Source: Candidatus Binatia bacterium (GTDB taxonomy: Bacteria; Desulfobacterota; Binatia; UBA1149; CAITLU01). Taken from it: a DNA stretch of 39,468 nucleotides. Position 1 is the first letter of the stretch. Each line of letters starts with the position of its first letter. A model generated the notes under the pieces. The model ran no database searches, was not told the DNA's origin, and was given only the letters and a program-made list of their open reading frames with translations. The stretch spans positions 2,528 to 41,995 of the forward strand of contig JBHEOD010000004.1 of the NCBI GenBank assembly GCA_046261745.1, read 5' to 3'. Both the position numbers and the translations under genes were made by a program. Below, in pieces: positions 9,178 through 37,311 of this stretch.

Positions 9178-10284
9178 TCAGTTTGCCGTGTCCAGGCTCG
9201 AGACGGTGCCGTGCAGGCTCTGGATCAGCGTCGTGATGCGTTCGAGAAGGTCGTCGAAGAGGCCCGAAAGCGCTTCGGCCCCGGCATCCGCCAGTGCGTC
9301 GGGCATGTCCCAGTCCACCACCACCGTCCGGAAGCCGAGCGTCTGCTGGGAGACCGCGCGCGCGGCCTCGCGGTCCACCGCGACGATGATGCGGTAATTG
9401 CCGAGCGGACCCATCGTGGCCAGCGGCGAGGCCTCCCGGTCGGAGAGGTTGATGCCGCGCTTGGCCAGGAAGTCGAGGAGCGGGGCGTCGGGATGTCCGG
9501 GGGCGGTCGTCGCGGCGGCGAACGTGAACTGGTCGCCCGCGACCGTACTCGCGATGGCCTCGGCGATGGACGCCAGGGACGAGGTGCCCGACGACAGGAA
9601 CAGGATGGTGGCCGTGCCCTTCGACTGATGCTTCACACTCTCGCCGGTGAGCATGTAGTAGACCTCTTCGCAGATGTTCACGGCCTGGTCGGCCACGCGC
9701 TCGTAGCGGTTGGCCACCGACAACAGCGAGAACAGCCTGGAGAGTTCGTCCGAACTGACCGGGATCTCCGCCACGAGGTTCTGGTAGATGTCGTGGTGAA
9801 GGGCGTTGGCCGTTGCCTCGAGCGCGATCGTCCGCCTGGCGAGATCGAGATCCTCGTCGAGAAAGGAGCGAACAGCCTGCCGCATCATGTCGACCGCCAC
9901 TCCAGCTATCTTCTCGAAACTTTCGAATTTGTTGACTTTTTCGGTCTTGGCCAAAAGGATGGCTTGGCGGTTGATGCTCTCGGCGTAGTCTCCGACCCGC
10001 TCGAGCTCGGAGACGATCTTGGCCACGGAGTGCACGAAGCGGAGGTGGGTGGCCACCGGGATGTGACGGACGATGAACTCGACGCACATCGCGTCGATCA
10101 TGCTCTCGAGGTCGTCCACCCGGGAGTCGCGCAAAATGGCGGCGTACGCGAGCTTGGTGTCGCCGGCGGTGAGCGCGCGCACCGAGTCCTCCAGCCCGCG
10201 AAGGGCAAGATCGGCCATCTCACGAACGCGATCCCGGATGCGGTGGATGTCGTTCTGGAGCTTTTCTTCCAGGTGCGAGGTCAC
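9178..10284 (-). CDS. phoU: PhoU fused to a C-terminal degenerate ArsC/LMW-PTP-like domain
   Basis: The first ~215 aa carry two PhoU repeats (ELERVGDYA; YERVADQAVNICEEV). The C-terminal ~150 aa follow the LMW-PTP/ArsC pattern (ILFLSSGTSSLASIAEA ... RGINLS ... DWDMPDA). Confidence 0.88.
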   Translation of the reverse strand: MTSHLEEKLQNDIHRIRDRVREMADLALRGLEDSVRALTAGDTKLAYAAILRDSRVDDLESMIDAMCVEFIVRHIPVATHLRFVHSVAKIVSELERVGDYAESINRQAILLAKTEKVNKFESFEKIAGVAVDMMRQAVRSFLDEDLDLARRTIALEATANALHHDIYQNLVAEIPVSSDELSRLFSLLSVANRYERVADQAVNICEEVYYMLTGESVKHQSKGTATILFLSSGTSSLASIAEAIASTVAGDQFTFAAATTAPGHPDAPLLDFLAKRGINLSDREASPLATMGPLGNYRIIVAVDREAARAVSQQTLGFRTVVVDWDMPDALADAGAEALSGLFDDLLERITTLIQSLHGTVSSLDTAN

Positions 10285-10348
10285 GCCGCGAAGTCCTTGT
10301 TGTCGGCGAAATATGGGGGAATGCCCGGTGCCGACGAAGCCGCGGGTC

Positions 10349-10375
10349 TAACGCCCTGCTGACATCAAAGCAACC
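10349..10375 (-). promoter_or_regulatory. Possible Pho-box-like 11 bp-phased direct repeats upstream of phoU
   Basis: On the minus strand, GGTTG, TGTCA and CGTTA units start exactly 11 nt apart (plus-strand CAACC 10371, TGACA 10360, TAACG 10349). Only one unit matches well. Confidence 0.3.
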
Positions 10376-10459
10376 AGCCTCGGCGCAGTTACGCAGCCCC
10401 CTTTGACCCCCGTCGCACACGCGGCCCGAACGGGCGTTGGCAGAGAACGATGCTCCGTG

Positions 10460-10473
10460 TAGAACGCGTTCCA
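10460..10473. promoter_or_regulatory. KstR-type operator TnnAACnnGTTnnA
   Basis: TAGAACGCGTTCCA matches the KstR consensus at every defined position and ends 41 nt before the ATG of the sterol side-chain operon. Confidence 0.65.
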
Positions 10474-10514
10474 CTCTGAACGCGGTCACCGGCCGCCCAA
10501 GGAATCGCGCAAAC

Positions 10515-10997
10515 ATGAGCCAGGACAAGTTGAGGCACTACCAGGGGGTCCTCTCGGCGGTGCATACCCTCGAGTACCCGTACACGCGCTCGGTAGGAAC
10601 GGTGATCGGCACCTTCCTGGCGGGCCTTCGAGACGGCCGCATCCTCGGAACCCGGACACCGTCCGGCGACGTGCTGGTGCCGCCGAGCGAGTTCGATCCG
10701 GCCACCGCCGCCACGCTCACCGAGATGTGCGACGTGTCGGACACCGGTACGGTCACCACCTGGAGCTGGGTGGCCGAACCGCGAGCAAAGCATCCGCTGC
10801 AAACGCCGTTTGCGTGGGCGCTGATCCGCCTCGACGGCGCCGCAACCGCCTTGCTTCATGTCGTGGACGTCGCCGACGAGGCGTCGATGAAGACGGGAAT
10901 GCGCGTGAAGGCCAGGTGGCGGGCCGAGCGCAAGGGCATGATCACCGACATCGAGTGTTTCGAAGCCGCCGATGCCGGCTCGGGAGCAAAGTCATGA
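10515..10997 (+). CDS. DUF35/OB-fold acyl-CoA-binding protein lacking Zn-ribbon cysteines (Rv3521 N-half-like)
   Basis: YTRSVG, FLAGLRDGRILG, GTVTTWSWV, PFAWALIRLDGA, GMRVKARW...ITDI. Confidence 0.82.
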   Translation: MSQDKLRHYQGVLSAVHTLEYPYTRSVGTVIGTFLAGLRDGRILGTRTPSGDVLVPPSEFDPATAATLTEMCDVSDTGTVTTWSWVAEPRAKHPLQTPFAWALIRLDGAATALLHVVDVADEASMKTGMRVKARWRAERKGMITDIECFEAADAGSGAKS

Positions 10998-11515
10998 GCG
11001 ATCCACTGCCCGGGACGGTCCGCGAACTTCCGACGCCGATCAAGATGATCACCGTGCCGACAAGTCTGGAATACACCATCACGCCCGGCAAGGCGCCGGC
11101 GCGATTTCTCAAGGGCATGATGGAGGGACGCATCCTCGGCGAGCGCTGCCCGAAGTGCCGCAAGGTCTACATGCCCCCGCGCGGATCGTGTGCGACCTGC
11201 GCGATTCCCACCGAAGAGCAGGTGGAGTTGTCGAACAAGGGCACCGTCACGACATTCTGCGTGGTGAACCTGCCGTTTTACGGACAGGCAGTCGAGATTC
11301 CGTACGTGTGTGCGGCGGTGGTACTCGACGGCGCGGATCTTCCGTTTTTCTGTCTGCTGGCCGAATGCCCGGTCGACGACGTGCGCATGGGCATGCGCGT
11401 CGAAACGGTGTGGTGCGAACCGGCCGAGCGCAAGCCGTCGCTCGAGAACATCCGCTACATGCGACCGACCGGTGAGCCGGACGCGTCTTACGATTCCTTC
11501 AAGGAGCACCTGTGA
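10994..11515 (+). CDS. DUF35 Zn-ribbon/OB-fold protein (Rv3521 C-half-like)
   Basis: ATGA overlap with the previous gene. CPKC...CATC Zn ribbon, GTVTTFCVVN, GMRVETVW, PTGEPDA. Confidence 0.88.
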   Translation: MSDPLPGTVRELPTPIKMITVPTSLEYTITPGKAPARFLKGMMEGRILGERCPKCRKVYMPPRGSCATCAIPTEEQVELSNKGTVTTFCVVNLPFYGQAVEIPYVCAAVVLDGADLPFFCLLAECPVDDVRMGMRVETVWCEPAERKPSLENIRYMRPTGEPDASYDSFKEHL

Positions 11516-12582
11516 TGCGCGAGATTGCGGTCGTTTCCTTCGCGCAGGCTGTGTCGGTGCGTCGCGATATCATCCAGAACGAAGTGGAGATCCTGATGCC
11601 TGTGGTTGCCGAAGCGGTCGCCTCGAGCGGGCTGACGCGCGACCGTATCGGCTTCACTGTTTCCGGCAGCTGCGACTATCTCGCCGGCGTGCCGTTCTCG
11701 TTCGTGATGGCTCTCGACGGTGTCGGAGCCTGGCCGCCGATCGAGGAATCGCACGTCGAAATGGACGGAGCCTGGGCGCTGGCCGAGGCCTGGACGCGAC
11801 TTCAGCACGGCGACATCGACACGGCGCTCGTGTTCGGTTTCGGCAAGTCGTCGGTCGGCGAGCTTCCGGACGTGCTCACTCTTCAGCTCGATCCGTATCT
11901 CGTTGCGCCGCTGTGGCCGGATTCGATCAGCGTGGCCGCGCTGCAGGCCCGCGCGATGATCGATGCCGGTCTCTGCACCGAGAAGGACATGGCCGAGGTG
12001 GCGGTGCGCAGCCGTCGCGATGCGAAGTCGAATCCGTACGCGCAACTGACCGGCGACTTCTCCGTCGACCAACTGCTGGCCGACCGCTGCATCTCGTCGC
12101 CGCTGCGCCGTCACGATTGTGCGCCGATCTCCGACGGCGCCTCGGCCGTGATCCTGGCCGCTGGCGACGTCGCGCGAGCGCTGTGCGAGAAGACCGGCCG
12201 CACGCCGGCCTGGATCCGCGGCCTCGATCATCGTGTCGACTCGCAGAACCTCGGCGGTCGCGACCTCACCACCTGCCCCTCGGCGCGCATCGCGGCGCTC
12301 AAGGCGGGCGTGACCGACGGCCCCGTCGATATCGCCGAGATCTACGCGCCGTTCACTCACCAGGAGATCCTGCTGCGAAAGGAACTGGGCCTTTCCGCGT
12401 CCACGCGAGTGAATCCTTCCGGAGGCGTGCTCGCGGGCAATCCGATGATGGCGGCTGGACTCATCCGCATCGGCGAAGCTGCGTCGTACATTCACCGCGG
12501 CGAGGCGAAGCGAACCGTTGCCCACGCCACCTCGGGCCCTTGTCTTCAACAGAACCTCGTCTGCGTGCTGGAGGGAGAGTGA
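11515..12582 (+). CDS. ltp4: Thiolase-fold lipid-transfer protein, Ltp4-like (aldolase subunit)
   Basis: SGSCDYLAG, GAWPPIEESHVEMDGAWA, VNPSGG, AHATSGPCLQQNLV. Sits between DUF35 and ltp3, as in the mycobacterial order. Confidence 0.8.
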   Translation: MREIAVVSFAQAVSVRRDIIQNEVEILMPVVAEAVASSGLTRDRIGFTVSGSCDYLAGVPFSFVMALDGVGAWPPIEESHVEMDGAWALAEAWTRLQHGDIDTALVFGFGKSSVGELPDVLTLQLDPYLVAPLWPDSISVAALQARAMIDAGLCTEKDMAEVAVRSRRDAKSNPYAQLTGDFSVDQLLADRCISSPLRRHDCAPISDGASAVILAAGDVARALCEKTGRTPAWIRGLDHRVDSQNLGGRDLTTCPSARIAALKAGVTDGPVDIAEIYAPFTHQEILLRKELGLSASTRVNPSGGVLAGNPMMAAGLIRIGEAASYIHRGEAKRTVAHATSGPCLQQNLVCVLEGE

Positions 12583-13739
12583 TGGCCCGTCATTGTGCAG
12601 TCGTAGGAATCGGCCAGACCCGCCACGCGGCCAAGCGCGGCGACCTTTCGATGGTCGGACTCGTTCGCGAGGCCGCGCTCGCCGCGCTCGAAGACGCGGG
12701 GCTAGACTGGAAGGACGTCGAAGCGCTGGTGATCGGCAAGGCTCCGGACATGTTCGAGGGCGTGATGCAGCCGGAACTGTATCTTGCCGATGCCCTCGGC
12801 GCCGTCGGCAAGCCGATGATCCGCGTGCACACGGCCGGCAGCGTGGGCGGGTCGACCGCACTCGTCGCGGCGCACCTCGTGCAGTCGGGGCAGTTCTCGC
12901 GCGTGTTGACGGTGGCTTTCGAGAAGCAGTCGGAAAGCGAGGCCACCTGGGCGATCACGCCGAAGATCCCGTTCCAGCCGCCTCTCGTGGCCGGAGCCGG
13001 AGGCTACTTCGCGCCGATCATTCGCGCGTACATCGACCGTTCGAAGGCACCGGCCGACATCGGACTTCGCGTGGCCGTCAAGGACAGGCAGAACGCGATG
13101 CGCAATCCGTTCGCGCACCTGCACCTTCCGGACATCGACATGGAAACGGTGGCGAACTCGCCGCTGCTGTGGGACCCCTTGCACTATCTCGAGTGCTGCC
13201 CGTCGTCGGACGGCGCGTGCGCGATGGTGCTGGCCGACGAGAGCGCCGCCAGAAAGGCTCCCGCTCGTCCGGCATGGGTGCTCGGCACGGCGATGCGCAG
13301 CGAGCCGACGATGTTTCCCGGCCGTAACCAGATCAATCCGCGAGCGGGCCGTGAGTGCGCGCAGGCCGTCTACCGACAGGCCGGCATCGACAATCCGCGC
13401 AAGCAGATTGATACCGCCGAGATCTACGTGCCGTTCAGCTGGTACGAACCGATGTGGATGGAGAACCTCGGCTTCGCCGACTTGAACGAAGGCTGGAAAA
13501 TGACGCTCGACGGTGTGACGGCCTTCGACGGGGCGCTTCCGATCAATCCGTCCGGCGGTGTGCTGTCGTCGAATCCGATCGGGGCCTCGGGAATGCTGCG
13601 ATTCGCCGAGGCTGCGATGCAGGTGCGCGGTGCCGCCGGCGAGCATCAGGTGGACGGGGCGAAGATCGCGCTCGGACACGCGTACGGCGGCGGATCCCAA
13701 TTTTTCTCGATGTGGATGGTCGGCGCAGAAAAACGCTGA
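12582..13739 (+). CDS. ltp3: Thiolase-fold lipid-transfer protein, Ltp3-like (steroid side-chain aldolase)
   Basis: Real start ATG 12582 overlaps the previous stop. GKAPDMFEGVMQPE, RVHTAGSVGGST, EIYVPFSWYEPMW, SNPIGASG, GHAYGGGSQF. Confidence 0.85.
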   Translation: MARHCAVVGIGQTRHAAKRGDLSMVGLVREAALAALEDAGLDWKDVEALVIGKAPDMFEGVMQPELYLADALGAVGKPMIRVHTAGSVGGSTALVAAHLVQSGQFSRVLTVAFEKQSESEATWAITPKIPFQPPLVAGAGGYFAPIIRAYIDRSKAPADIGLRVAVKDRQNAMRNPFAHLHLPDIDMETVANSPLLWDPLHYLECCPSSDGACAMVLADESAARKAPARPAWVLGTAMRSEPTMFPGRNQINPRAGRECAQAVYRQAGIDNPRKQIDTAEIYVPFSWYEPMWMENLGFADLNEGWKMTLDGVTAFDGALPINPSGGVLSSNPIGASGMLRFAEAAMQVRGAAGEHQVDGAKIALGHAYGGGSQFFSMWMVGAEKR

Positions 13740-13804: not shown

Positions 13805-15421
13805 ATGGAACTGAATATCGCAGACCTGTTCGAAATGGTTGTCGACACGGTTCCCGAGCGCGAGGCGCTCATCTGCGGGGACAAGCGCTACACGTACGCA
13901 GAGCTGGACCGCGAGGCCAATCGGCTGGCCCACTTCCTTGCCGGCAAGGGCGTGAAGCCCGGCGAGCACGTCGGCATGTATCTTTACAACGGCGCCGAAT
14001 ACCTCGTGGCCGTCCTGGCCGCGTTCAAGATCCGCGCGGTTCCCGTCAATGTGAACTACCGTTACGTCGAGGACGAGCTGGCCTATCTGCTCTCCGACAG
14101 CGACCTCGTCGCGCTGTTCTATCAGCGCGAGCTCGGTTCGCGCGTGGCGGGCCTCAAGGGCCGCGTGCCGAAGGTGAGGGTGCTCGTCGAAGTGGACGAC
14201 GGCAGCGACGCGCCGCAAGCGTTGCCGGAGGCCGTGTCGTTCGGGGATGCGCTCGCGTCCGGAAAGAGCGAGCGCGATTTCGCAGCGCGCTCGGGCAAGG
14301 ACATCTACATCATCTACACCGGCGGCACGACGGGCATGCCGAAGGGCGTGATGTGGCGCCATGAAGACGTCTTTTATGCAGGCCTGCAGGGCGGCAACCC
14401 GGGCGGACCTCCGATTGCGAGGGGCGAAGACCTCGTCGACATCGTGCGCGGCGGCATGGGCCTGACCGTGTTGCCTTCGGCGCCGTTCATTCACGGTGCG
14501 GCGCAGTGGGCCTCGCTGATCGGCTTCTTCGGCGGCGGCAAGGTCGTCGTGCAGGGCGGAAAGAGCTTCGAGCCGCGGACGGTTGCGAGACTCATTCGCG
14601 ACGAGAGGGTCAATACGCTGACGCTGGTAGGCGATGCGATGGCCAGGCCGCTTGGCGAAGCCATCGAGGCGATGGGGGACGAGGCCGACGTGTCGTCCGT
14701 GTTCGTGATCGGCTCTGCCGGCGCGGTGCTGTCGGAGACGGTAAAGGAACAGCTGCGACGCGTGATGCCGTCGGTGATGATCGTCGACAGTTTCGGCGCC
14801 ACCGAGACCGGGCACCAGGGCTCGATGATGGCCGGTACGGGGCACGGCGCCGGCCAGGTGCCGCTCTTCTTCATGAACGACACCAACTGCGTGTTCGACG
14901 ACGAAATGAAGCCGGTGGTGCCGGGATCGGGCGTGATGGGCCGCCTCGCCCGTCGCGGCCACATCCCGGTCGGCTACTACAACGACCCCGAGAAGACGGC
15001 CAAGACGTTCTTCGAGATCGACGGCGTTCGCTGGGTGATGCCGGGCGATCTTGCCACCGTGGAGAGCGACGGCAGCATTCGCGTCTTCGGCCGCGGCGCG
15101 GTCTGCATCAACAGCGGCGGGGAGAAGATCTTTCCCGAAGAAGTGGAAGCGGCGCTCAAGGCGCATCCCGACGTCCTCGACGCCGTGGTGGTCGGCATTC
15201 CCGACGAGCGCTGGGGGCAGCGGGTGGCGGCGCTCGTGCAGCCGCGACCCGGTGCGAAGCCGAGTGCGGAGGATCTCGACCGCCACTGCCGTACCAAGGT
15301 GGCCGGCTACAAGATTCCCCGCTTCGTGCGTTTCGTCGATGAGGTGATGCGCCAACCGAGCGGCAAGCCCGACTACCGCTGGGCGGCGTCCTACGCCGCG
15401 GAGCAGGCCGCCGCGGTTTAA
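13805..15421 (+). CDS. fadD19: Acyl-CoA synthetase, FadD19-like (steroid-CoA ligase)
   Basis: ATG 13805 with GGAG upstream. MELNIADLFE start, YTGGTTGMPKGVMWRHED AMP-binding loop, CINSGGEKIFPEEVE, PSGKPDYRWA. Confidence 0.8.
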   Translation: MELNIADLFEMVVDTVPEREALICGDKRYTYAELDREANRLAHFLAGKGVKPGEHVGMYLYNGAEYLVAVLAAFKIRAVPVNVNYRYVEDELAYLLSDSDLVALFYQRELGSRVAGLKGRVPKVRVLVEVDDGSDAPQALPEAVSFGDALASGKSERDFAARSGKDIYIIYTGGTTGMPKGVMWRHEDVFYAGLQGGNPGGPPIARGEDLVDIVRGGMGLTVLPSAPFIHGAAQWASLIGFFGGGKVVVQGGKSFEPRTVARLIRDERVNTLTLVGDAMARPLGEAIEAMGDEADVSSVFVIGSAGAVLSETVKEQLRRVMPSVMIVDSFGATETGHQGSMMAGTGHGAGQVPLFFMNDTNCVFDDEMKPVVPGSGVMGRLARRGHIPVGYYNDPEKTAKTFFEIDGVRWVMPGDLATVESDGSIRVFGRGAVCINSGGEKIFPEEVEAALKAHPDVLDAVVVGIPDERWGQRVAALVQPRPGAKPSAEDLDRHCRTKVAGYKIPRFVRFVDEVMRQPSGKPDYRWAASYAAEQAAAV

Positions 15422-15542: not shown

Positions 15543-16355
15543 GTGTCCGAACAACCAGCTTTGCTCGTCGAACGCGACGGTCACGTCGCCACCGTCACCA
15601 TGAACCGGCCCGAGTCGCGCAACGCGCTCAACCCGGAGATGATCTGCCGCATGGCTGATGCGTGGGACATGATCGATACGGACGACGACGTTCGCGTTGC
15701 GATCCTCACCGGCGCGGGCGGTCATTTCTGTGCCGGCGCCGACCTCGACAAGCTGGTGTCGCGTTCGCTCAAGGGACTACCTCCCGAGAACGAATGGGAA
15801 CAGCGCATCCGCGACGACTACCAGGTCATTTTCCGCGGCCTCTTGCGCACCAGCCGCACGATCAAACCACTGATCGCGGCCATCGAAGGCTCGTGCATCG
15901 CCGGCGGAGTCGAGATCCTGCAGGCCACCGACATTCGCGTGGCGGCCGAGAGTTCGAAGCTCGGAGTGTCGGAAGCGCGGTGGGGCCTGTTTCCGCAAGG
16001 CGGCTCGACGACACGACTGCCGCGCCAGATTCCGTTCACTCGTGCGATGGAAATGCTGCTGACGGGCGACCACTACAGCGCACGCGAAGCGCTCGACATG
16101 GGGCTCATCGGTCGGGTCGTGGCCGACGGTACCGCGCTCGAGACGGCCCGCGCGATCGCCGCGCGCATCGCCGAGAACGGCCCGGTGGCCGTGCGCAACA
16201 TCAAGCGCGCGGTCCTCGAAGTGGAAGGCATGACCGAAGAGCAGGCCCGGGAAGTCGAGATGCGCCTGGGCATGGAGGTGTTCTCCACCGAGGACGCCAA
16301 GGAGGGGCCGCGCGCGTTCAAGGAAAAGCGCAAGCCCGAGTTCAAGGGCCGCTGA
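15543..16355 (+). CDS. echA19: Enoyl-CoA hydratase, EchA19-like
   Basis: AGGAGG RBS then GTG. FCAGADL, KPLIAAIEGSCIAGGVEILQATDIRVA, SEARWGLFPQGGS, EGPRAFKEKRKP. Confidence 0.8.
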   Translation: MSEQPALLVERDGHVATVTMNRPESRNALNPEMICRMADAWDMIDTDDDVRVAILTGAGGHFCAGADLDKLVSRSLKGLPPENEWEQRIRDDYQVIFRGLLRTSRTIKPLIAAIEGSCIAGGVEILQATDIRVAAESSKLGVSEARWGLFPQGGSTTRLPRQIPFTRAMEMLLTGDHYSAREALDMGLIGRVVADGTALETARAIAARIAENGPVAVRNIKRAVLEVEGMTEEQAREVEMRLGMEVFSTEDAKEGPRAFKEKRKPEFKGR

Positions 16356-18365: not shown

Positions 18366-19667
18366 TTAAGCGGTCGCTGCACCGGCTTCGACCTGGTGGA
18401 ACGGACATCCGCCGGCGGCCGATTTCGACTCGCTCGCCGCGCTGCGCGGGGCGGGCGTGTAGCGCACCGGCATCTCCTTGATGCCGTGGATGAAGTTGGA
18501 GCGCAGGTAGCGGATCGGGCCGGCCAGCTCGATGTCGGGCACCCGCGTCAGGATCTCCGTGAAGATCGAGCAGAGCTGCGCACGCGCGAAGCTGGCGCCG
18601 AGGCAGTAATGCTCGCCGATGCCGAGGCCGAGGTGCTCCGGGATGTTGCGGGTGACGTCGAAACGGTCGGGGTCGGTGAATACGTCCTCGTCGCGATTGG
18701 CCGACGGGTACCACATCACCACCTTGTCGCCCTTCTTCAGCGTCTTGCCGCGCAGTTCGTAGTCCTCGGTCAGCGTACGCCGGAAGTGCATGACGGCCGG
18801 GTTGTAGCGCAGGAACTCCTCGACGGCGTTCGGGATCAGCGAGGGGTCCTCGACGAGCTTGCGGCGCTCTTCGGGATTCTCGATCAGCAGGCGCATGCCG
18901 TTGGCGGTGAGCGTGCGGGTCGTCTCGTTTCCGGCCACCATCAGCATCAGGAAGAAATAGTTGTACTGGAGCGCGTCGAGGGATTCGCCGTCGACCTTGC
19001 CGTGGTAGAGGGCGCTCGCGAGGTTGTTCATCGGGCATTCGCCGACCAGCTCGCGCAGCTTCTGGCCGTACATGCAGACTTCCGCGGCGGCCATGCGACC
19101 TTCGTCGAAGGAACCCTGCAGCTCGGGGTCGTCGAAACCGACCAGCTTGTTGCTGATGTCGAAGAGGCGTTGCTGGTCTTCCTCGGGCACGCCGACGATC
19201 TCCATGATGGTCTTCATGGGGAGTTGGGCGGCTACGTCGGAGACGAAGTCGCAGCTGCCGCGCTCGGCGATGTCGTCGATGATTTCACGGGCAAGGTCGC
19301 GGATGTGCGGCTCGAGCTGGTCGATCATCCGCGGCGTGAAGTTCTTGGCGACCAGACGCCGGTACTTAACGTGCAGGGGAGGGTCCATGTTGAGCATCAT
19401 GGAGCGGGAGCCCTCGAGATCGTCCCCCTGGAGCTCGAAGATGTTGGTGCCGCCCTGCCAGGACGAGAACAGCGTGGGGTTTCGCGACATCATCTTGACG
19501 TCTTCGTATTTGGTGATGTCCCAGAACCCGCGGCCGTTACGCTCGACGTCGAAGTGTGTCTCGTTCCAGTGCACCGGGTCCTCGCGCCGGAGCCGGCGGA
19601 AGTACTCGTGGGGAAAGCCGTTGGCGAAGGAATCGGGATCGGACAGGTCCAGTTCGTTGAAGGTCAT
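18366..19667 (-). CDS. Cytochrome P450, CYP124/CYP125-like (probable steroid or branched-lipid terminal oxidase)
   Basis: ATG 19667 after GGGAG. MLNMDPPLH, I-helix AGNETT, EEFLR (ExxR), HFRRT, heme ligand GEHYCLG. Confidence 0.92.
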   Translation of the reverse strand: MTFNELDLSDPDSFANGFPHEYFRRLRREDPVHWNETHFDVERNGRGFWDITKYEDVKMMSRNPTLFSSWQGGTNIFELQGDDLEGSRSMMLNMDPPLHVKYRRLVAKNFTPRMIDQLEPHIRDLAREIIDDIAERGSCDFVSDVAAQLPMKTIMEIVGVPEEDQQRLFDISNKLVGFDDPELQGSFDEGRMAAAEVCMYGQKLRELVGECPMNNLASALYHGKVDGESLDALQYNYFFLMLMVAGNETTRTLTANGMRLLIENPEERRKLVEDPSLIPNAVEEFLRYNPAVMHFRRTLTEDYELRGKTLKKGDKVVMWYPSANRDEDVFTDPDRFDVTRNIPEHLGLGIGEHYCLGASFARAQLCSIFTEILTRVPDIELAGPIRYLRSNFIHGIKEMPVRYTPAPRSAASESKSAAGGCPFHQVEAGAATA

Positions 19668-19784
19668 GTTGTGCGCTCCCCAGTGTGGTCTTGGTCGCGA
19701 TGCCGTCCTAGACTCCGCGCTCGTTCCGGCCGTCCCCGTGGCCGTCCGGGGTGAAGCTTGTCGTTCCTGCCGCGACCGGGCATG

Positions 19785-19798
19785 AACGAACGTTTGTT
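19785..19798. promoter_or_regulatory. Candidate TetR operator in the divergent P450/TetR intergenic region
   Basis: AACGAACGTTTGTT, an AT-rich near-palindrome with one mismatched pair, in GC-rich surroundings. Confidence 0.5.
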
Positions 19799-19886
19799 GG
19801 GTAACAGTTTCCGCGCACTGCGGCAAGACGAGAATGGCTCCCAGCGCGTCCATGACGCCCAAGGGCGTGTGACCTCAGGTGATTCC

Positions 19887-20522
19887 ATGACAACCGGCCC
19901 CCTGGACCCTAGCCTTGGTGAGTCGCGCACGACCCGCGAGCGCATTCTCGATGCGGCCGAACAGGTCTTCGCGGAGAAAGGCCTCGGCGCGGCCCCGGTG
20001 CGTGACATCGCGGCCCGGGTCGGCCTCAATCCCGCAAGCCTTTACAACCACTTCGCCGGCAAGGAGGAACTCTACGAGGCCGTCCTCGAAAGGGGCCTGA
20101 CGCCCGTGCTCGAGATGCTCTCCGATCTCATGGGTGGTGCGAGGACGCGCGATCGTGAGGAGCTCGTGATCGACCGGGTCGTGCTGCACTTCGCGGCCAG
20201 TCCCAACCTCGCCAAGCTGATTCATTACGAGACGCTGGCCGGGGGAGAGCGCCTCGCCCGCATCGCCGGCCGCTGGTTTGAGCCCGTCTACCAGCGCGGC
20301 ATCGAGGTCCTGCACGCGAGCCGCGCGGCCGAGGTCTGGTCCGAAGAGGACCTGCCGCTGCTGCTGCTGGCTTTCCAGAATCTCATCGTCGGCTACTTCG
20401 CAATGGCGCCGCTCGTCCGCCAGGTCTTCGGATTCGACCCGGTCTCCGAGGAGGGCATCTCACGTCAGACGGCATTCCTGCACCGGGTTGCCCACCTGTT
20501 GGTGCCGCCGCGCGAAGAATAG
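19887..20522 (+). CDS. TetR/AcrR family transcriptional regulator
   Basis: TRERILDAAEQVFAEKG...VRDIAARVGLNPASLYNHFAGKEELY helix-turn-helix. ATG 19887 preferred as start. Confidence 0.92.
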   Translation: MTTGPLDPSLGESRTTRERILDAAEQVFAEKGLGAAPVRDIAARVGLNPASLYNHFAGKEELYEAVLERGLTPVLEMLSDLMGGARTRDREELVIDRVVLHFAASPNLAKLIHYETLAGGERLARIAGRWFEPVYQRGIEVLHASRAAEVWSEEDLPLLLLAFQNLIVGYFAMAPLVRQVFGFDPVSEEGISRQTAFLHRVAHLLVPPREE

Positions 20523-25610: not shown

Positions 25611-26027
25611 TCACGAGAAGACGACAACGGCCGACCCGGGCGTCGTCTTTTTCCCTTCGGCATTCTCGACCCAGACGTCGAGTTCGACGACCCTCTGGCC
25701 TGCGTCAGTCGTCTTTTTCTTCTTCACCACGCCCTTGCAGACGAACTCCTTGTCGGGAAGGTCCATGCCGCGGTACTGGCACGACAGCTTGCGGATGCGT
25801 CCGTCGTGCCCGAGCCAGTTCGACACCAGTTCGCCGAGCGATGCGTACTTGAAGCGCCCGTGCACGATGATCGAGCCGATCTGCCTGGCCTGCGCAAAGT
25901 TGTAGTCGTGGTGAAGGGGGTTGAAGTCGCCGCCTCCGGCCGAGTACTTCACGAGAGTCTGCAGCGTGGGGGTCTTGCGCAGTTCCGGAAGCGTGTCGCC
26001 TTCGTTGATGTCATCGAATCGGGGCAT
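25611..26027 (-). CDS. MaoC-like (R)-hydratase/dehydratase, catalytic subunit
   Basis: YSAGGGDFNPLHHD (D-x4-H hydratase 2 motif) and IIVHG. Confidence 0.85.
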   Translation of the reverse strand: MPRFDDINEGDTLPELRKTPTLQTLVKYSAGGGDFNPLHHDYNFAQARQIGSIIVHGRFKYASLGELVSNWLGHDGRIRKLSCQYRGMDLPDKEFVCKGVVKKKKTTDAGQRVVELDVWVENAEGKKTTPGSAVVVFS

Positions 26028-26100
26028 GAGAGAATCCTTTGCTTTTCCGACAGCGAAAGTTCCTTGCGGGCGCGAGCCGAATTCGCCCGGCCGGGAGTCG

Positions 26101-26144
26101 AGGATCGGAAGATCCTCAGTAGAGGATCAGAAGCTCCTCAGTAG
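26101..26144. repeat. 22 bp tandem duplication spanning the stop codon of the upstream MaoC gene
   Basis: AGGATCGGAAGATCCTCAGTAG followed by AGGATCAGAAGCTCCTCAGTAG (20/22 identical). Confidence 0.55.
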
Positions 26145-26635
26145 TAAATGACCTGCGAGGTTTGGCGCGCAGCAACCTTGCCGGTGAACTTGTCGGCGTA
26201 AGTCGTCACGATCGTCATCACGAGCATCTTGCCGCCCAGGGCCGCGCTGGAGGCAACCTTCATGTCCTCGAGTCGCTGCACGGCCACCAGCGTGTCGCCG
26301 GCGCAGATGTCCTCGAGGTATTCGGTCTCGGTGCCGCCGTCGAGCAGACCCTTGAGACCGTGCTTTACCGAAGGAATGCCCTCGGTGGGACCACTGAACG
26401 TATCGCTGCAGCGTCCGGGCAGGAAGACCGCCGTTCCGAGGTAGGTCGGAGGCGCCGGAAGGCTCCGGTAGCCGGCGTTCCTGGCCGCGTCGAGGTCGAA
26501 GTAGACGGGATCGGTGTAGCCGACCCCGCGCGCGAACATTCGCACGCTGGTGGTGGTCACCTCGAAATCCCACGGCGGGGATTCCTTGCCGATTTGGGAC
26601 TTCATGTCGGCGGACAGTTCGATGCTCTCGGCCAC
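26138..26635 (-). CDS. MaoC N-terminal-type hot-dog protein (HadA-like partner subunit)
   Basis: GTG 26635 after GAGGAG. VRMFARGVG..DPVYFD..AARNAGY..LPAPPT, LLDGGTETEY...AGDTL. Confidence 0.8.
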   Translation of the reverse strand: MAESIELSADMKSQIGKESPPWDFEVTTTSVRMFARGVGYTDPVYFDLDAARNAGYRSLPAPPTYLGTAVFLPGRCSDTFSGPTEGIPSVKHGLKGLLDGGTETEYLEDICAGDTLVAVQRLEDMKVASSAALGGKMLVMTIVTTYADKFTGKVAARQTSQVIYY

Positions 26636-26840
26636 GGGTTGCTCCTCAATTGCTCCTGGCCGGATGGTCCGGCGGGAGCAGCGGCCGCACGGTGGGGCGG
26701 CGGCAGGCGAAGTGAAGCAGCCGGGGTTGGGGAGAGCAACGGGACGGTGTGCCGCCGGCAGGGTCGCTGCCCGCGTCTTTTGGAGGCAGGGAGGCCGCGT
26801 GCACGCCAGCGGCTCGCTTTCCCCGCACTGCTCCGGTAAC

Positions 26841-26854
26841 TGCAAGATCGTGCA
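26841..26854. promoter_or_regulatory. Second copy of the TGCAAG-nn-CtTGC operator-like motif
   Basis: TGCAAGATCGTGCA, ending 41 nt before the SCP2-thiolase ATG; compare TGCAAGGTCTTGCC at 2302-2315. Confidence 0.35.
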
Positions 26855-26895
26855 CCGCCGCGGAGGCGGGAGCCAACCGCTTAAGGAGACAACCC

Positions 26896-28083
26896 ATGGG
26901 CAGGAAAGTATTCGTCGTCGGCGTCGGAATGACCAAGTTCGAGAAGCCCGGATCCAAGGCCTGGGACTATCCCGACATGGCACGGGAGGCCGGCACCAAG
27001 GCATTGGCCGACGCGGGCCTCAGCTTCGACAAGATCGAACAGGTGGCGGTCGGCTACTGCTACGGCGACTCCACCGCCGGCCAGCGCGCCGTCTACGAGC
27101 TCGGCATCACCGGTGTGCCCATCTACAACGTCAACAACAACTGTTCGACGGGATCGACGGCGTTGTTCATGGCGAAGCAGTTCATCGAAGGCGGCCTGGC
27201 CGACTGCACGATGGCTCTCGGTTTCGAGAAAATGGAGAAGGGGTCCTTGGGCATGAAGTTCCAGGACCGCACCAACCCGATGGACAAGCACTTCGGTGAG
27301 ATGGTGAAGCTGCGCGGTTTCGCCAATGCCCCCGGCGCTCCGCAGTTCTTCGGCAACGCCGGCATCGAACACATGGAGAAGTACGGCACCACGGCCGAAT
27401 CCTTCGCCCGCATCGGCGCGAAGAATCACAAGCACTCCGTCAACAACCCCTACTCGCAGTTCCGCGACGAATACTCGCTCCAGGACATTCTCAACTCGCC
27501 GACGGTCTACGGACCGCTGACCAAGCTGCAGTGCTGCCCGACGTCGGACGGCTCCGGCGCCGCCATCCTCGCGAGCGAAGACTTCGTAAAGAAACACGGA
27601 CTCGAGAAAACCGCCGTCGAGATCGCCGGCATGGCGATGGCCACCGACTTCCCGTCCACCTTCGACGAGTCGTCCTGCATCAAGCTCGTCGGCTCGGACA
27701 TGACGCGCAAGGCGGCCGAAAAGGTCTATGCGCAGGCTGGAATGGGTCCCGACGACGTGCAGGTGGTCGAGCTTCACGACTGCTTCTCCTGCAATGAACT
27801 GATCACTTACGAGGGCCTCGGCCTTTGCGAGGAAGGAAAGGGCGGTGAGCTGATCGACAGCGGTGCGGTGACGTACGGCGGCAAGTGGGTCGTCAATCCG
27901 TCCGGCGGCCTGATCTCCAAAGGCCACCCGCTCGGCGCCACCGGCCTCGCGCAGTGCGCCGAGCTCAACTGGCAGCTTCGCGGCGAGGCCGACAAGCGCC
28001 AGGTAGAAGGCGCGAAGGTGGCGCTGCAGCACAACCTCGGTCTCGGCGGTGCGGCCGTCGTGGCCATGTACCGAAGGGACTGA
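26896..28083 (+). CDS. SCP2/SCPx-type thiolase (lipid-transfer protein, Ltp1-like)
   Basis: AAGGAG RBS, ATG 26896. [46 protein letters not shown]. Confidence 0.92.
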
Positions 28084-28086
28084 GGC

Positions 28087-28773
28087 ATGGCCGAGCTCGA
28101 CCTGACTCGTGATGGAGACATCTTCGTGCTTCGCATGAAGAGCGGGGAGAATCGCTTCAACCCCGACTTCCTCGCCGCAATGCACGGTGCACTCGACGAG
28201 GTGGAAGCGAGCCGCGGCGCGGCTGCGCTGGTCACGACGGGGGAGGGGAAGTTCTACTCGAACGGCCTCGACCTCGACTGGCTCTCGCAGCAGGAGCACG
28301 CCGACGCGATGAAATTCATCGGCACCGTGCTGGCGCTCTTCGCGCGCATCGTCGCGTTCCCGATGGCGACGGCGGCGGCCTGCAACGGACACGTGTTCGC
28401 CGGCGGAGCGATGCTCGCGCTGGCCCACGACTGGCGCGTGATGCGCAGCGACCGCGGCTTCTTCTGCCTGCCCGAGCTCGATCTCGGGATGCCTCTTCCG
28501 GTGGGCATGCGCTCGCTGATCAAGGAAAAGCTCGATCCGCGCGTGTTCCGCGACACGATCCTGACGGCAGGACGTTTCGGGGCCGAGGACTGCGTGCGGC
28601 TCGGCATCGTCGACCAGGCGGCGGCCGAGGCCGACGTGTTGGCCTCGACTGTGGAGCGGCTGCGGCCGCTGGCCGGCAAGAGCCGTGAAGCATTCAAGGC
28701 GCTCAAGCGCGGGATGTACGCAGAACTGCTCGAAGACCTGACGGGACCTCGAGCGGTGGCGATTCCGCAGTAG
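28087..28773 (+). CDS. Enoyl-CoA hydratase/isomerase (Delta3-Delta2 isomerase-like)
   Basis: ENRFNP, KFYSNGLDL, NGHVFAGGAMLALAHDWRVMRSDRGFFCLPELDLG. Confidence 0.88.
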   Translation: MAELDLTRDGDIFVLRMKSGENRFNPDFLAAMHGALDEVEASRGAAALVTTGEGKFYSNGLDLDWLSQQEHADAMKFIGTVLALFARIVAFPMATAAACNGHVFAGGAMLALAHDWRVMRSDRGFFCLPELDLGMPLPVGMRSLIKEKLDPRVFRDTILTAGRFGAEDCVRLGIVDQAAAEADVLASTVERLRPLAGKSREAFKALKRGMYAELLEDLTGPRAVAIPQ

Positions 28774-33307: not shown

Positions 33308-34729
33308 TCAGGTTCCGAGGACGCGAATGTAGTCGGCTCGGATGGCTTCGATGCGTTCCTCGAGATCGTCGTGGTTCCAGTTGGTGGTTGGTACGGGCGG
33401 CAGCACCGTGACGGCCACGCTCGCCGGGCGAATGATGACGCCGTGCTTGGGCAGGGCATCGATCGAGTTGTGAATCACGATCGGCACGACGGGCACGCCG
33501 CCGGCCATCGCCATGCGAAAGGCACCTTTCTTGAAGTGTCCGAGCCGCGGCCCGAGGCTGCGCGTGCCTTCCGGCGCGATTGCGATCGAAAGGCCCCGGC
33601 GCAGCGCCTCAACCGCCGGCTCGAGTGCCTTGATCGCCTCCGCGTGATTGAAGCGGTCGATGAAAATGGTGCCGGCCAGTTCGAAGAGCTGTCCGAGCAC
33701 CGGAATCCCACGCACCTCCTGCTTGCTGATGCCGACGAAGTCGCGGCGAAGCAGCTTGCAGATCAACAACGGATCGATGCCGCTCTGGTGATTGAAGATG
33801 AACACGGCCGGCCGTTTCGACCACAGGTGCTCCTCGCCCTCGACCGTCACGTGAATGCCGGCCAGCGCGGTTCCGAGCTCGCCCCACGTCGTGGCGGCGA
33901 GGTTCACGGCCTGGCGAAGATCGCCGTCGAGAATCGCCGCCGGCAGCCCGAGCAGAAAGGACGGCACCACGCTCGCCATCGACAGCGAGCTGCGTACGAT
34001 GTCTGTCACGCTGGGCAATCCGCGACTCGAGAACGTACGAGCCGGCCAGATACGCTTGGCAGCGATCGACTGCAGGCGGCGCGAAGGATTGATCGGGCGC
34101 GGCTTGCCGACCATCAGCAGCAGCGGCAGGTCCTCGTCGCTGTCGGTGTAGAAATAGCTGTCGCCGAGTGCGATGCCGCGCTGGTTCGCGAAGAGCTGGG
34201 CGGCATCCGCCTTGCCTTGGCCGTAGCAGGCGGGCCGGACGATGTCGCCGGTGAGCTTGCCTTCCTTCACTTCGAGCTCGGTACAGAACACGTGCTCGAT
34301 GCCGAGCTCGCGGGCCACGGGCGCAACCTGGGAGCGCGTGGCCGACGAGATCACGGCCAGCGAGTGCCCCTTGGCACGATGCGCATCGACGAGCGCGCGT
34401 GATTCGGGGTAGATGCTGGCCGCGATGCTGCTTCCGAAGATGCGCTCGCCGATGGCTTCGAATTCGGCCTCGGACAGCCCGCGGACCATCGCGAGGCTCT
34501 CGGAAACGAAGGCCGAGAAGTTTTTCTGCCCGAGCTGGAACGCGGTGCCGGCCGCCAGCGCGGCGGCGATGTCGGTCGGTGCTGCGCGTCCACTTGTCAG
34601 CCATTCGCGCACGAAGGCGCCAGCGGAGAAACCCGCGATGAGGGTGCGGTCGAGGTCGAAGAACGCGCCGATCGCGGGGCCGGAAGGGCCTTCGTCGATC
34701 TCGCGGGTGAGGATGCCGTGATTGGTCAT
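33308..34729 (-). CDS. plsC: Bifunctional HAD-IB hydrolase / 1-acylglycerol-3-phosphate acyltransferase (Rv2483c-like)
   Basis: HAD motifs FFDLDRTL, ISSAT, GKA, YTDSDED; acyltransferase motifs NHQSGID, FIDR, PEGTRS. Confidence 0.88.
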   Translation of the reverse strand: MTNHGILTREIDEGPSGPAIGAFFDLDRTLIAGFSAGAFVREWLTSGRAAPTDIAAALAAGTAFQLGQKNFSAFVSESLAMVRGLSEAEFEAIGERIFGSSIAASIYPESRALVDAHRAKGHSLAVISSATRSQVAPVARELGIEHVFCTELEVKEGKLTGDIVRPACYGQGKADAAQLFANQRGIALGDSYFYTDSDEDLPLLLMVGKPRPINPSRRLQSIAAKRIWPARTFSSRGLPSVTDIVRSSLSMASVVPSFLLGLPAAILDGDLRQAVNLAATTWGELGTALAGIHVTVEGEEHLWSKRPAVFIFNHQSGIDPLLICKLLRRDFVGISKQEVRGIPVLGQLFELAGTIFIDRFNHAEAIKALEPAVEALRRGLSIAIAPEGTRSLGPRLGHFKKGAFRMAMAGGVPVVPIVIHNSIDALPKHGVIIRPASVAVTVLPPVPTTNWNHDDLEERIEAIRADYIRVLGT

Positions 34730-34770
34730 GGCCGGGGCGCGGACCATAGCACACGAACGCGTGCGTTGCG

Positions 34771-37311
34771 TTGCCCCCGGTCGCTGCTCTACAAGGACCG
34801 CTGGTGACTTCTTCCGCCCCCTCGCAGATCTCCGCCGTCGCGCCGGAACCGTATCCGGCAGCGACCTCTCGTTCGGCCTCCACAGACCTGGCGGCCGAGC
34901 CCGGCTGGCCCGTCGGGGCAGGCCGAGTCGTGTTCCTGCTCGATGCGTGCAGCAACCTCGAGAAGCGCATGCTCGAGGACTGGATCCGCCGCGCGAAGCC
35001 GGAGGCTACTCCGGACACGGCGATCGAAGCCGTGCCGATCCCCCCGTCGCGGCGCCGTTCCGCGCGCAAGCCGCGACCGAGCCTGGCCCGCCTCGAATCT
35101 GCCATCGCCGCCGGCGGCGATCCTTTGATGGCGCCGCTTCGCGTCGCCTGGTTCTCGGAGGCCACCGACGGGATTCGCCACTTGAGCGCGCTCGATATCG
35201 TGACGTTGACCGATCCACGCGACCCGGGGCCGCTGCGGCAGCGTTGGACGGCCGCGCGCCATCCCGGACGCGTGCGCGTGGTGGCCGGCGAACCTGCCCG
35301 CTTGTCGGAACTGCGCGATCGCTGGCGCGAGAGCGGAGGGCAGTACGAAACCGAAACGACGGGCCTCGCCGAGTTCGTCGCACGCCGGGCGGCGCTGGCG
35401 CTGGAGAGGGCGGAGCGACGACTGCGCGGCGCGCGGTACAAGGTTCCGCGCCTGGTCAGCGAGGATATTCTTGCGCGGCCTGCCTTTCGAGGCGGCATCG
35501 CGCGCCTCGCGCGCGAGCTCGGCAAGCCGGAGGACAAGGTTGCCGCGGATGCGGCGCGCTACCTTGCCGAGATCGCGGCCACGCACGATCCCTTCGTCAT
35601 CGACGTGGTCGCATGGTTGATCCGTGCTCTGTACCGGCGCGGCTACGGCGAGAACATCCACTACGACCGCGAAAGGCTCGAGCGTATCTACGCCACCGCC
35701 CAGCGCTACCCCGTGGTGTTCCTCCCCACGCACAAGTCGAATCTCGACCACCTGGTGCTGCAGTACGTGCTGCACGAGAACGGCCATCCGCCCAACCACA
35801 CCGCGGGCGGCATCAACATGAACTTCTTCCCGATCGGGCCGCTGATGCGCCGGGCAGGAGTGTTTTTCATCCGTCGCACGTTCAAGGACAACGCGATCTA
35901 CAAGTTCGTCCTCCATCACTACGTCGACTACCTGATCGAGAAGCGCTTCACGCTCGAATGGTACCTCGAGGGCGGACGGTCGCGCTCCGGCAAGCTCCTT
36001 CCGCCGCGCTTCGGAATGCTCGCCTACGTGGTCGACGCGTGGCAGCGCGGCAAGAGCGAGGACGTGGTGCTGCTGCCCGTCTCGATCGCGTACGACCAGA
36101 TCCAGGACGTCGGCGAGTACGTGGCCGAGCAGAGGGGGGCGGGCAAGGAGCGCGAGAGCTTCAGCTGGTTCCTGAAGGTGGTGCGCCGCCTGCGGCGCCG
36201 CTACGGCGACATTCATGTCCGCTTCGGCGAGCCGGTGTCCCTGCGGGAGTTCTACGGCGAGGCGGCCGCGCCGGCCGTCGCGGGGGATCCGGACGAGCGA
36301 AACCTCACGCTCCAGAAGCTCGCCTTCGAGCTGAGCGTGCGCATCAACCGCGCCACGCCCATCACGCCGACCTCGCTCGTGACGCTTGCGCTGCTCGGGG
36401 TGGGCGATCGCGCGCTCACCGTCGAAGAAACGGCCGCGGCCCTTACCAATCTCGTTGCCTACGTGGAGCGGCGCTGCCTGCCGACCACCGAGGAAGTCGA
36501 CCTTCGCCGGCCCGATGAGGTCAAGCGCGTGCTCGATCACCTCGTCGAGAACGGCGTGGTGTCGGTGTTCACCGAAGGCCCCGAGGCTGTCTACGCCATT
36601 CGCTCCGAGGAGTTCCTCACGGCCGCCTATTATCGCAACACCGTCATCCATTTCTTTGTGACAGGATCGATTGGCGAGGTGGCGCTCGCGGCCGCGATGG
36701 AAGCCGCGACCGGTGACCGGCTCGAGCTGTTCTGGTCGAAGGCCCTCGCGCTTCGCGACCTTCTGAAGTTCGAGTTCTTCTTCTCGGACCGCGCGGATTT
36801 CCGCGAGGAACTTCGCGCGGAGATGGCCGTTCACGATCCGGACTGGGAAGACCGGGTTCGGGCGGGAGGAAAGGAAGCCGAAGCCCTGCTTCTGTCGATC
36901 AAGCCGTTCAACTCGCATCGCGTGCTGCGGCCTTTTCTCGAAGCCTACCGCGTGGTCGGCGATCAACTCGCGCGTCTGCCCGCCGGAGTGAAGGTGGACG
37001 AGACGCGGTTCGTCGCGCAGTGCCTGGCCCTCGGCAAGCAGTACCAGCTGCAGCGTCGTGTCACGCGCGCGGAGTCGATCTCGAAAGTACTTTTCCAGAA
37101 CACGCTCCGGCTGGCTGCCAATCGCAACCTGCTCGAGGGCGGGCAAGGCGAGGAACTGGCCGCGCGGCGCCTTGCGTTTTCGCAGGAGATCCAGCGTGCG
37201 ATCCGGCGCGTGGATGCGATCGGCGTTCTTGCGGCCGGCCGGCGCACGGGCCTGCTCGGCCGCATTGACGAATCGGACGCCGGCGCGGCCGATCCGGGGA
37301 GGGAACCATGA
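34771..37311 (+). CDS. plsB: Glycerol-3-phosphate 1-O-acyltransferase (PlsB2-like); start uncertain (possibly GTG ~34804)
   Basis: HKSNLD (Hx4D), GVFFIRR, YLEGGRSRSGKL, PVSIAYDQ, LRDLLKFEFFF. Confidence 0.9.
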   Translation: MPPVAALQGPLVTSSAPSQISAVAPEPYPAATSRSASTDLAAEPGWPVGAGRVVFLLDACSNLEKRMLEDWIRRAKPEATPDTAIEAVPIPPSRRRSARKPRPSLARLESAIAAGGDPLMAPLRVAWFSEATDGIRHLSALDIVTLTDPRDPGPLRQRWTAARHPGRVRVVAGEPARLSELRDRWRESGGQYETETTGLAEFVARRAALALERAERRLRGARYKVPRLVSEDILARPAFRGGIARLARELGKPEDKVAADAARYLAEIAATHDPFVIDVVAWLIRALYRRGYGENIHYDRERLERIYATAQRYPVVFLPTHKSNLDHLVLQYVLHENGHPPNHTAGGINMNFFPIGPLMRRAGVFFIRRTFKDNAIYKFVLHHYVDYLIEKRFTLEWYLEGGRSRSGKLLPPRFGMLAYVVDAWQRGKSEDVVLLPVSIAYDQIQDVGEYVAEQRGAGKERESFSWFLKVVRRLRRRYGDIHVRFGEPVSLREFYGEAAAPAVAGDPDERNLTLQKLAFELSVRINRATPITPTSLVTLALLGVGDRALTVEETAAALTNLVAYVERRCLPTTEEVDLRRPDEVKRVLDHLVENGVVSVFTEGPEAVYAIRSEEFLTAAYYRNTVIHFFVTGSIGEVALAAAMEAATGDRLELFWSKALALRDLLKFEFFFSDRADFREELRAEMAVHDPDWEDRVRAGGKEAEALLLSIKPFNSHRVLRPFLEAYRVVGDQLARLPAGVKVDETRFVAQCLALGKQYQLQRRVTRAESISKVLFQNTLRLAANRNLLEGGQGEELAARRLAFSQEIQRAIRRVDAIGVLAAGRRTGLLGRIDESDAGAADPGREP

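Follow-up and report, generated by a model that had tools for sequence, protein, structure and literature searches.

The 14-bp sequence TAGAACGCGTTCCA at positions 10460 to 10473 of the 39.5-kb window (the whole stretch of DNA analysed here) is very probably the operator for a KstR-like repressor of a sterol side-chain operon; binding, promoter elements, and inducer we infer. Mechanistically this is conventional, and what is new is the taxonomic setting. As read from sequence, an uncultured diderm lineage has all three components (operator code, repressor, and target operon), and counterparts occur in dozens of MAGs that carry Binatia, Myxococcota, or Deltaproteobacteria labels. The sequence-only reading that had singled out the site held that regulatory code and enzymes are common across phyla, and this is borne out by the box, a divergent KstR homologue, and the ltp operon in a non-actinobacterial host.

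In the model we propose, a KstR-like TetR repressor would switch off the DUF35-DUF35-ltp4-ltp3-fadD19-echA19 operon via 10460 to 10473, its dimer sitting on the core promoter and excluding RNA polymerase. The same protein would also repress its own gene, with the kshA-like gene behind it, via a box 8 nt before the start codon. At least five more promoters, serving three KshA-like oxygenases, an acyl-CoA dehydrogenase pair, and a luciferase-like monooxygenase, have the box as well. By analogy with M. tuberculosis KstR, the repressor may be released by the CoA thioester of an early sterol catabolite.

Results

The box is the sole match to the KstR consensus TnnAACnnGTTnnA across the whole window. 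It had been described as a perfect KstR box, which is true of the consensus, matched perfectly by the 14-mer TAGAACGCGTTCCA, and not of the palindrome, which is imperfect (6 of 7 pairs) because A2 faces C13. The further remark that G and C extend the symmetry by one base on each side is accurate, since G (10459) and C (10474) form one extra symmetrical pair around the site, to which no strand is assigned. Taken from the window alone, the motif is weak and nonsignificant evidence, because at least one TnnAACnnGTTnnA match also arises in 14 of 100 dinucleotide-preserving shuffles of the window. A degenerate copy was said to follow immediately, and the sequence in question, CTGAACGCGGTCAC, is present at 10476 to 10489 (no strand). 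As a second box it was rejected, given that it matches 5 of 8 specified positions, lies more than two mismatches from the strict pattern, and is conserved in none of the five same-genus genomes, unlike the box itself; it is probably due to chance.

The box lies in the 230-bp gap between two divergent genes, phoU (9178 to 10284, minus strand, start at 10284) and the first DUF35 gene, and its end is 41 nt from the ATG of the latter at 10515. Beyond phoU come pstS, pstC, pstA, and pstB (Pfam PhoU, PBP_like_2, BPD_transp_1, and ABC_tran), and this divergent phoU-pst neighbour is not part of the sterol system. Genes of the operon behind the box were called from Pfam, the GC3 frame profile, NCBIfam, and inspection of start codons. 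The order agrees with the DUF35-ltp4-ltp3-fadD19-echA19 arrangement proposed earlier, with two DUF35 genes in place of one, and all are on the plus strand. The operon opens with an Rv3521-like DUF35/ChsH2-C OB-fold protein (10515 to 10997; Pfam OB_ChsH2_C, 1e-13), preceded by AAGGAA at 10499 to 10504. The start of the second DUF35 gene (10994 to 11515; zinc ribbon and OB fold, Pfam zf-ChsH2 and OB_ChsH2_C) overlaps the stop of the first (ATGA). There follow genes for an ltp4-like lipid-transfer/thiolase-like protein (11512 to 12582; NCBIfam PRK07937, 538.6 bits, cut-off 419) and an ltp3-like thiolase-domain protein (12579 to 13739; PRK08313, 659.5 bits, cut-off 514), the reading frame of the latter having been settled by the GC3 profile. 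The last two encode a fadD19-like acyl-CoA synthetase (13805 to 15421, ATG at 13805; PRK07798, 736 bits, cut-off 543) and an echA19-like enoyl-CoA hydratase (15543 to 16355; PRK07799, 371.9 bits, cut-off 316), which scores 351.8 bits on the EchA19 equivalog, below its cut-off of 400. The ltp3, ltp4, fadD19, and echA19 genes have roles in the degradation of C24-branched sterol side chains.

A putative -35-like hexamer, TTGGCA, is found at 10437 to 10442 on the plus strand, 17 nt upstream of the box, and the left half of the box (TAGAAC) would serve as its -10. The succession of TTGGCAGAG, 17 nt, and TAGAA is kept in all six genomes of the genus (the window genome and five others), while the spacer varies. 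Because a strict sigma-70 and terminator scan of 10250 to 10560 found nothing, this -35/-10 reading draws on conservation alone. A look-up of public sequencing runs for 10200 to 12200 gave DNA runs sharing small fractions of its words and no RNA run. A sigma-54 reading of TTGGCA...GC was rejected, since most members of the genus either lack the GC or have a GG-GC spacing that exceeds the required one by a base. In several other families TTGAC(T/A) is followed by 5 nt and then the box, which would therefore fill the -35/-10 spacer, and at two other promoters of the window genome the box comes after a TATAAT- or CATAAT-like hexamer. In every one of these arrangements RNA polymerase would be kept out by a bound dimer, the mechanism put forward for KstR in the available text of the study that defined its motif (PMC1995591).

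The sequence-only reading judged the TetR inside the window (19887 to 20522, helix LNPASLYNHF) to be unlike KstR and supposed the binder to be encoded elsewhere; the first point is confirmed and the second is supported. The best matches of that TetR are of the AmtR, PsrA, and ScbR types, and a KstR homologue with its own box is encoded just past the window end, on the same contig (C219). The gene occupies C219:42247-42864 on the minus strand (window 39720-40337), 0.25 kb beyond the window end and ~30 kb downstream of the box, and encodes 205 aa from a GTG start. Its box, TAGAACAGGTTCCA, at C219:42873-42886 (TGGAACCTGTTCTA when read on the strand of the gene), lies 8 nt before the GTG. Among the 33 TetR_N matches in the genome, the one at C219:42703-42843 (PF00440, 57.3 bits) is directly beside this second box; for the protein and its relatives, precomputed annotation gives PF00440 and PF17925.

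The protein shares the TetR fold of KstR and has KstR as its best match by sequence, family profile, and structure. In a phmmer search of the PDB, the top four distinct sequences were all M. tuberculosis KstR (E 5.7e-24, 88 bits), with the alignment extending over residues 3-139 and 157-199 and thus covering both the DNA-binding and the ligand domains; the next protein followed at E 3.4e-14. The best NCBIfam family was transcr_KstR NF033703 (123.6 bits, E 6.7e-36, profile positions 8-184 of 185), with 43 bits for the second-best family. Genome-wide, this profile gave one strong match, at 118 bits versus 38 for the next. Because 123.6 bits is below the NF033703 equivalog cut-off of 280 bits, the protein is a divergent homologue and not an equivalog by NCBI's rule. 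An AlphaFold model (32-sequence alignment, pLDDT 89.5, pTM 0.82) was compared with the PDB by Foldseek, and ranks 1-14 were all KstR (best E 2e-09; best match TM 0.76/0.88, rmsd 2.3 A, 31% identity), followed by a Rhodococcus TetR and the acyl-CoA-binding FadR. When the protein was set against six actinobacterial equivalog KstR sequences, 32 of 62 residues of the DNA-binding domain were identical, and the recognition helix VA(L/V)GTLYRYF was near-invariant and common to both. In the ligand domain, 31 of 123 residues (~25%) were identical and there was an insertion of ~20 residues, so the inducer may differ from that of KstR.

The stop codon of the regulator gene lies 26 nt before the start of a kshA-like gene on the same strand, an arrangement which suggests that kstR and kshA form one operon governed by the autoregulatory box. 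On its other side, the regulator gene faces a divergent 4HBT thioesterase gene. The 3' part of the kshA-like gene is at 38818 to 39468 (minus strand, Pfam KshA_C) and its 5' end is beyond the window. The gene cannot be read through because a short run of N shifts its frame; this run interrupts it at the right end of the window (locus L012 ~780-800, C219 ~41990).

The box also stands before other steroid-type genes of this genome, as the proposed sharing of regulatory code had implied. The window genome comprises 3.84 Mb in 284 contigs (66.7% G+C, 77.7% complete, 3.8% contamination). The loose consensus TnnAACnnGTTnnA has 26 matches in it versus ~8.5 expected from base composition. Many of these are intragenic, for example of the TCGAAC..GTTCGA type, and for this reason the stricter TRRAAC..GTTYYA was chosen. 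This strict pattern, TRRAACNNGTTYYA, occurs at 7 sites genome-wide versus 0.47-0.81 expected (Markov orders 1-3), and its reversed control pattern at 1. All seven strict sites are promoter-proximal, 8-110 nt before start codons, and the genes behind them are mostly of steroid type. Besides the window box before the ltp operon (C219:12987) and the site before the KstR-like gene (C219:42873), they lie before a KshA-like oxygenase (C146:16960), before a KshA-like oxygenase followed by an SDR (C71:4772), and between a kshA-like gene, itself followed by a gene for a kstD-like FAD-binding protein, and SDR-ECH-MFS genes in divergent orientation (C280:2319). The remaining two precede a tandem pair of acyl-CoA dehydrogenases (C97:1427) and a luciferase-like monooxygenase (C146:5725). 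A position weight matrix, circular because it was trained on the exact matches, was used solely to list near-sites. One-mismatch near-sites were found before an amidohydrolase (C146:11147), before an O-methyltransferase (C146:2097), and, as TAGAACCTGTTCCC, 54 nt before a DUF1329/LolA-like gene (C246:10308). The last of these genes (locus L108, ~5309) adjoins one for an 853-aa protein without a Pfam family, and this locus may provide outer-membrane uptake for the regulon in place of the actinobacterial Mce4 transporter.

The regulator was surveyed with one genome per species, giving 71 loci, of which 57 had a full-length relative (44-86% identity); the closest relatives are in MAGs labelled Binatia, Myxococcales, or Deltaproteobacteria. 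A TnnAACnnGTTnnA box is present within -150 to +30 of the regulator gene in 45 of the 57 relatives' loci, usually in the form TGAAACGTGTT(C/T)(T/C)A. The other 12 have no box near the gene, two of them keeping a half-site alone. As a positive control, TAGAAC(G/A)TGTTCTA was found upstream in 6 of 6 actinobacterial loci above the KstR cut-off (equivalogs with 333-341 bits on NF033703; one further locus, belonging to a genome flagged unpublished, was left out of this analysis). In some Myxococcota-labelled MAGs (L049, L051, L064, L070, L084), two boxes exactly 22 bp apart precede the regulator, a spacing of two helical turns that suggests, on geometry, two dimers bound on one face of the DNA.

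Conservation at the ltp locus was similar. Of the 40 relatives' genomes, 28 encode an ltp4-like protein. At 22 of the 28 loci examined in other genomes the box lies 977-1316 nt upstream of ltp4, before the DUF35 genes, and it persists at ltp4 identities as low as 61% despite divergence of the flanks. In the aligned ltp regions, TAGAAC(A/G)(C/T)GTT(T/C)CA is almost invariant amid diverged surroundings, and the box is conserved at this locus in all five same-genus genomes. The six loci without it comprise one that departs from the pattern at one base (TAGAACACGTTTCC), one truncated at the edge of its contig, an additional copy with 55% identity, and three from relatives without the regulator.

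The presence of the box also followed that of the regulator. With a threshold of E <= 1e-25, the regulator was found in 27 of the 40 relatives (f1, 12/12; f2, 7/7; f3, 5/5; f4, 3/3) and was not found in family f5 (0/3) or in other families of the class (0/10). Strict boxes averaged 8.3 per genome in the 27 relatives with the regulator (reversed control, 0.8) and 1.1 in the 13 without it (reversed control, 2.6), a pattern that would be overstated if read as statistics, because relatives do not count as independent samples. Genus g2 (G006 and G011), from the same family as the window genome, departs from the pattern: it keeps the regulator, but neither a strict box nor an ltp4 match occurs in its genomes. 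The g2 regulators (L035, L036, L195, L196) are 66-70% identical to that of the window genome, and their own upstream site has decayed to the half-site GGCCACCTGTTCTA; this genus may represent a regulon in decay or a regulator of changed specificity. A search of 250 other genomes, sampled evenly across the phylum, recovered the regulator from just 2, and these belong to the window's family. Farther afield, four distant MAGs labelled Myxococcota or Deltaproteobacteria had 7-9 strict boxes versus 0-3 in the control, their TGT being 45-52% identical to that of the window genome.

The host is not actinobacterial, so the earlier impression of a non-actinobacterial genome stands. Committing to no more than this, we call it Binatia-like, an uncultured soil diderm (Gram-negative type) of the Binatia or 'delta-proteobacterial' kind. 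The genome encodes LpxC (267 bits), and the named control genomes that have LpxC are all diderms. The TGT encoded on the contig of the box has named relatives labelled Candidatus Binatia at 84, 80, and 77% identity; other relatives are labelled 'Candidatus Limnocylindrales' (84 and 75%) and Deltaproteobacteria (76%), and none among the 120 matches listed is labelled Actinobacteria. The same contig also carries queA, yajC, secD, and secF. With regard to such labels, depositors have assigned the same GTDB genus either to 'uncultured Myxococcales' or to 'Candidatus Binatia' (L032/L033, G003/G004). Single MAGs labelled Nitrosopumilus, Spirochaetales, Opitutales, and Gammaproteobacteria have regulators nested among Myxococcota-labelled ones, and these odd-phylum labels are probably labelling or binning errors.

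A tree of the regulators (89 rows, method 'quick', SH-aLRT support) was rooted by two very long outgroup branches (9-10). The 29 actinobacterial sequences form one clade (SH-aLRT 100, branch length 1.71), and the regulator of the window genome groups outside it, with Binatia- and Myxococcales-labelled sequences (SH-aLRT 99). This rules out a recent acquisition from a donor resembling Mycobacterium or Rhodococcus. With the outgroup root, the whole actinobacterial clade, mycobacterial sequences included, stands beside a Binatia-labelled group (SH-aLRT 92), inside the diversity of the MAGs; we claim no direction of transfer because the root depends on the two very long outgroup branches.

Discussion

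The closest known counterpart of the system found here is that of KstR (Rv3574, or KstR1; Mycobacterium, Rhodococcus, and Nocardia). Kendall 2007 defined the KstR motif and showed dimer binding (PMC1995591), and the operator consensus TnnAACnnGTTnnA in the available part of that paper is the one matched by our box. In the same text, the Rv3520c/Rv3521 and Rv3515c (fadD19)/Rv3516 (echA19) intergenic KstR sites are EMSA-positive, both being orthologous targets and the former the orthologous promoter, which upholds the statement of the sequence-only reading that the KstR operator controls the homologous actinobacterial genes. Both systems have a box at the gene of the regulator itself (predicted autoregulation), a box overlapping the core promoter (predicted in the present case), and orthologous targets (Rv3521-ltp4-ltp3, fadD19, echA19, and kshA-type genes). 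The differences concern host, protein, and gene order. Unlike the hosts of KstR, the present one is a diderm, as its LpxC indicates. The protein is ~31% identical to KstR overall and departs from it in profile score (123.6 vs 280 bits) and in its ligand domain. Mycobacterial kstR is divergent from fadE34, whereas here kshA lies downstream and a thioesterase gene is divergent; likewise, fadD19 and echA19 are joined to the ltp operon here and have their own KstR site in M. tuberculosis, as far as the accessible text describes it (PMC1995591). Because it scores below the equivalog threshold and lacks the mycobacterial synteny, we file the regulator as a divergent member predicted to work like KstR.

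Other regulators are more distant from the present protein. Among actinobacterial homologues below the equivalog cut-off (Streptomyces-type and others), TetR proteins with 119-199 bits on NF033703 likewise have a TnnAACnnGTTnnA box upstream of their own gene in 12 of the 23 analysed, but in the tree they lie within the actinobacterial clade, whereas the present protein is placed with MAG sequences beyond it. KstR2 (Rv3557c; HIP-CoA-responsive, C/D-ring genes) is also a TetR repressor of steroid catabolism responsive to a CoA thioester, but it is a weaker match (PDB 4w97/4w1u, E ~2.6e-06, N-terminal part only). The operator of KstR2 differs from that of KstR. TesR/TeiR and others of Comamonas testosteroni resemble our regulator in controlling steroid degradation (9,10-seco pathway) in diderm bacteria, but they belong to unrelated protein families.

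Published accounts place KstR in Actinobacteria. In the text available of the defining study, convincing KstR orthologues are confined to mycobacteria and Nocardia, with one doubtful case in Streptomyces, SCO2319, named as a 'possible orthologue' (PMC1995591). Reviews, in the portions accessible, treat KstR as an actinobacterial regulator and name other regulators for Proteobacteria (PMC6678751), and the available part of a 2021 review describes KstR homologues as absent from bile-acid-degrading Proteobacteria. Bergstrand 2016 mentions, in the text at hand, KstR2 alone and in Actinobacteria (PMC4810484). Sterol biosynthesis genes have been reported in sponge-associated Binatia, according to the part of that report available (PMC9531527). 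In the literature searched, most subscription journals and supplements excepted, we encountered no account of KstR or its box from bacteria other than Actinobacteria; a few relatives are already called 'cholesterol catabolism regulator' in JGI automatic annotation.

Several other explanations of the box were weighed. It is very improbable that the box is a real operator of a different regulator, such as the window TetR or another of the ~33 TetR proteins, with the KstR-like protein binding elsewhere. Candidates are plentiful given the 33 TetR_N matches, and one TetR is encoded on the steroid-type contig C146, itself with four boxes or near-boxes. However, only the KstR-like gene has a box at its own start, a feature also seen in 45 of 57 relatives; the recognition helix of its product corresponds to that of KstR, the binder of the same motif; box counts track its presence across the 40 relatives; and both the window TetR and the C146 TetR have their best matches in other families. 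We regard it as very unlikely that what is conserved is a core promoter element (a -10-like TAGAAC and its surroundings) and not a repressor site. The genus-wide conservation of TTGGCA, 17 nt, and TAGAA would fit a promoter element, as would genome L116, where TAGAAG holds that spacing and the full box lies 10 nt further on. Yet both halves of the palindrome are conserved across families, the sequence of the box stays constant while its place relative to the promoter varies (in the spacer between TTGAC(T/A) and the -10, or after a TATAAT-like hexamer), and in the 13 relatives without the regulator the strict pattern and its control are of similar rarity (1.1 vs 2.6 per genome).

A chance palindrome, or a contig that entered the bin as actinobacterial contamination, is scarcely credible. 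From the window alone chance could be entertained, as 14 of 100 shuffles match, and the genome is a bin of 284 contigs with 77.7% completeness and 3.8% contamination. Chance is contradicted by the conservation of the box, its enrichment at promoters, and its co-occurrence with the regulator. Against contamination, the housekeeping TGT, QueA, YajC, and SecDF are encoded on the same contig, with the named relatives of TGT labelled Binatia; the same locus with its box recurs in all five same-genus genomes; and a long branch sets the 29 actinobacterial regulators apart as a clade of their own (SH-aLRT 100, 1.71).

The reading of the box as the operator of a KstR-like repressor has several implications. 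The regulator together with its box provides a cheap sequence marker for predicting sterol-degrading regulons in metagenomes, and it draws attention to groups from soil and sea that are not known to degrade steroids. The proteins also represent naturally occurring KstR-type sensors whose ligand domain has diverged while their DNA code is unchanged, and they could be of use for biosensors and for the study of TetR specificity evolution. A bolder idea, which we hold to be rather unlikely, is that regulator, operator, and sterol-catabolic enzymes are one horizontally mobile module, most diverse in uncultured diderms (Binatia- and Myxococcota-labelled MAGs). If this were true, the cholesterol regulon on which M. 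tuberculosis depends would be rooted outside Actinobacteria.

The window holds further gene sets of possible interest. A cytochrome P450 gene (minus strand) and the gene for the non-KstR TetR (plus strand) are divergent at 18366 to 20522 with no KstR box between them, and this pair is probably a separate local switch. Genes for a ChsH2-like MaoC protein, a ChsH1-like dehydratase, an ltp2-like thiolase (PRK08256, 673 bits), and an enoyl-CoA hydratase lie at 25611 to 28773 and make up a second steroid side-chain module, with no strict KstR box preceding it. The stretch from 33308 to 38762, which separates the steroid side-chain genes from kshA, contains neutral-lipid/phospholipid genes, encoding a HAD-acyltransferase fusion, a PlsB-like GPAT, and a WS/DGAT wax-ester/triacylglycerol synthase.
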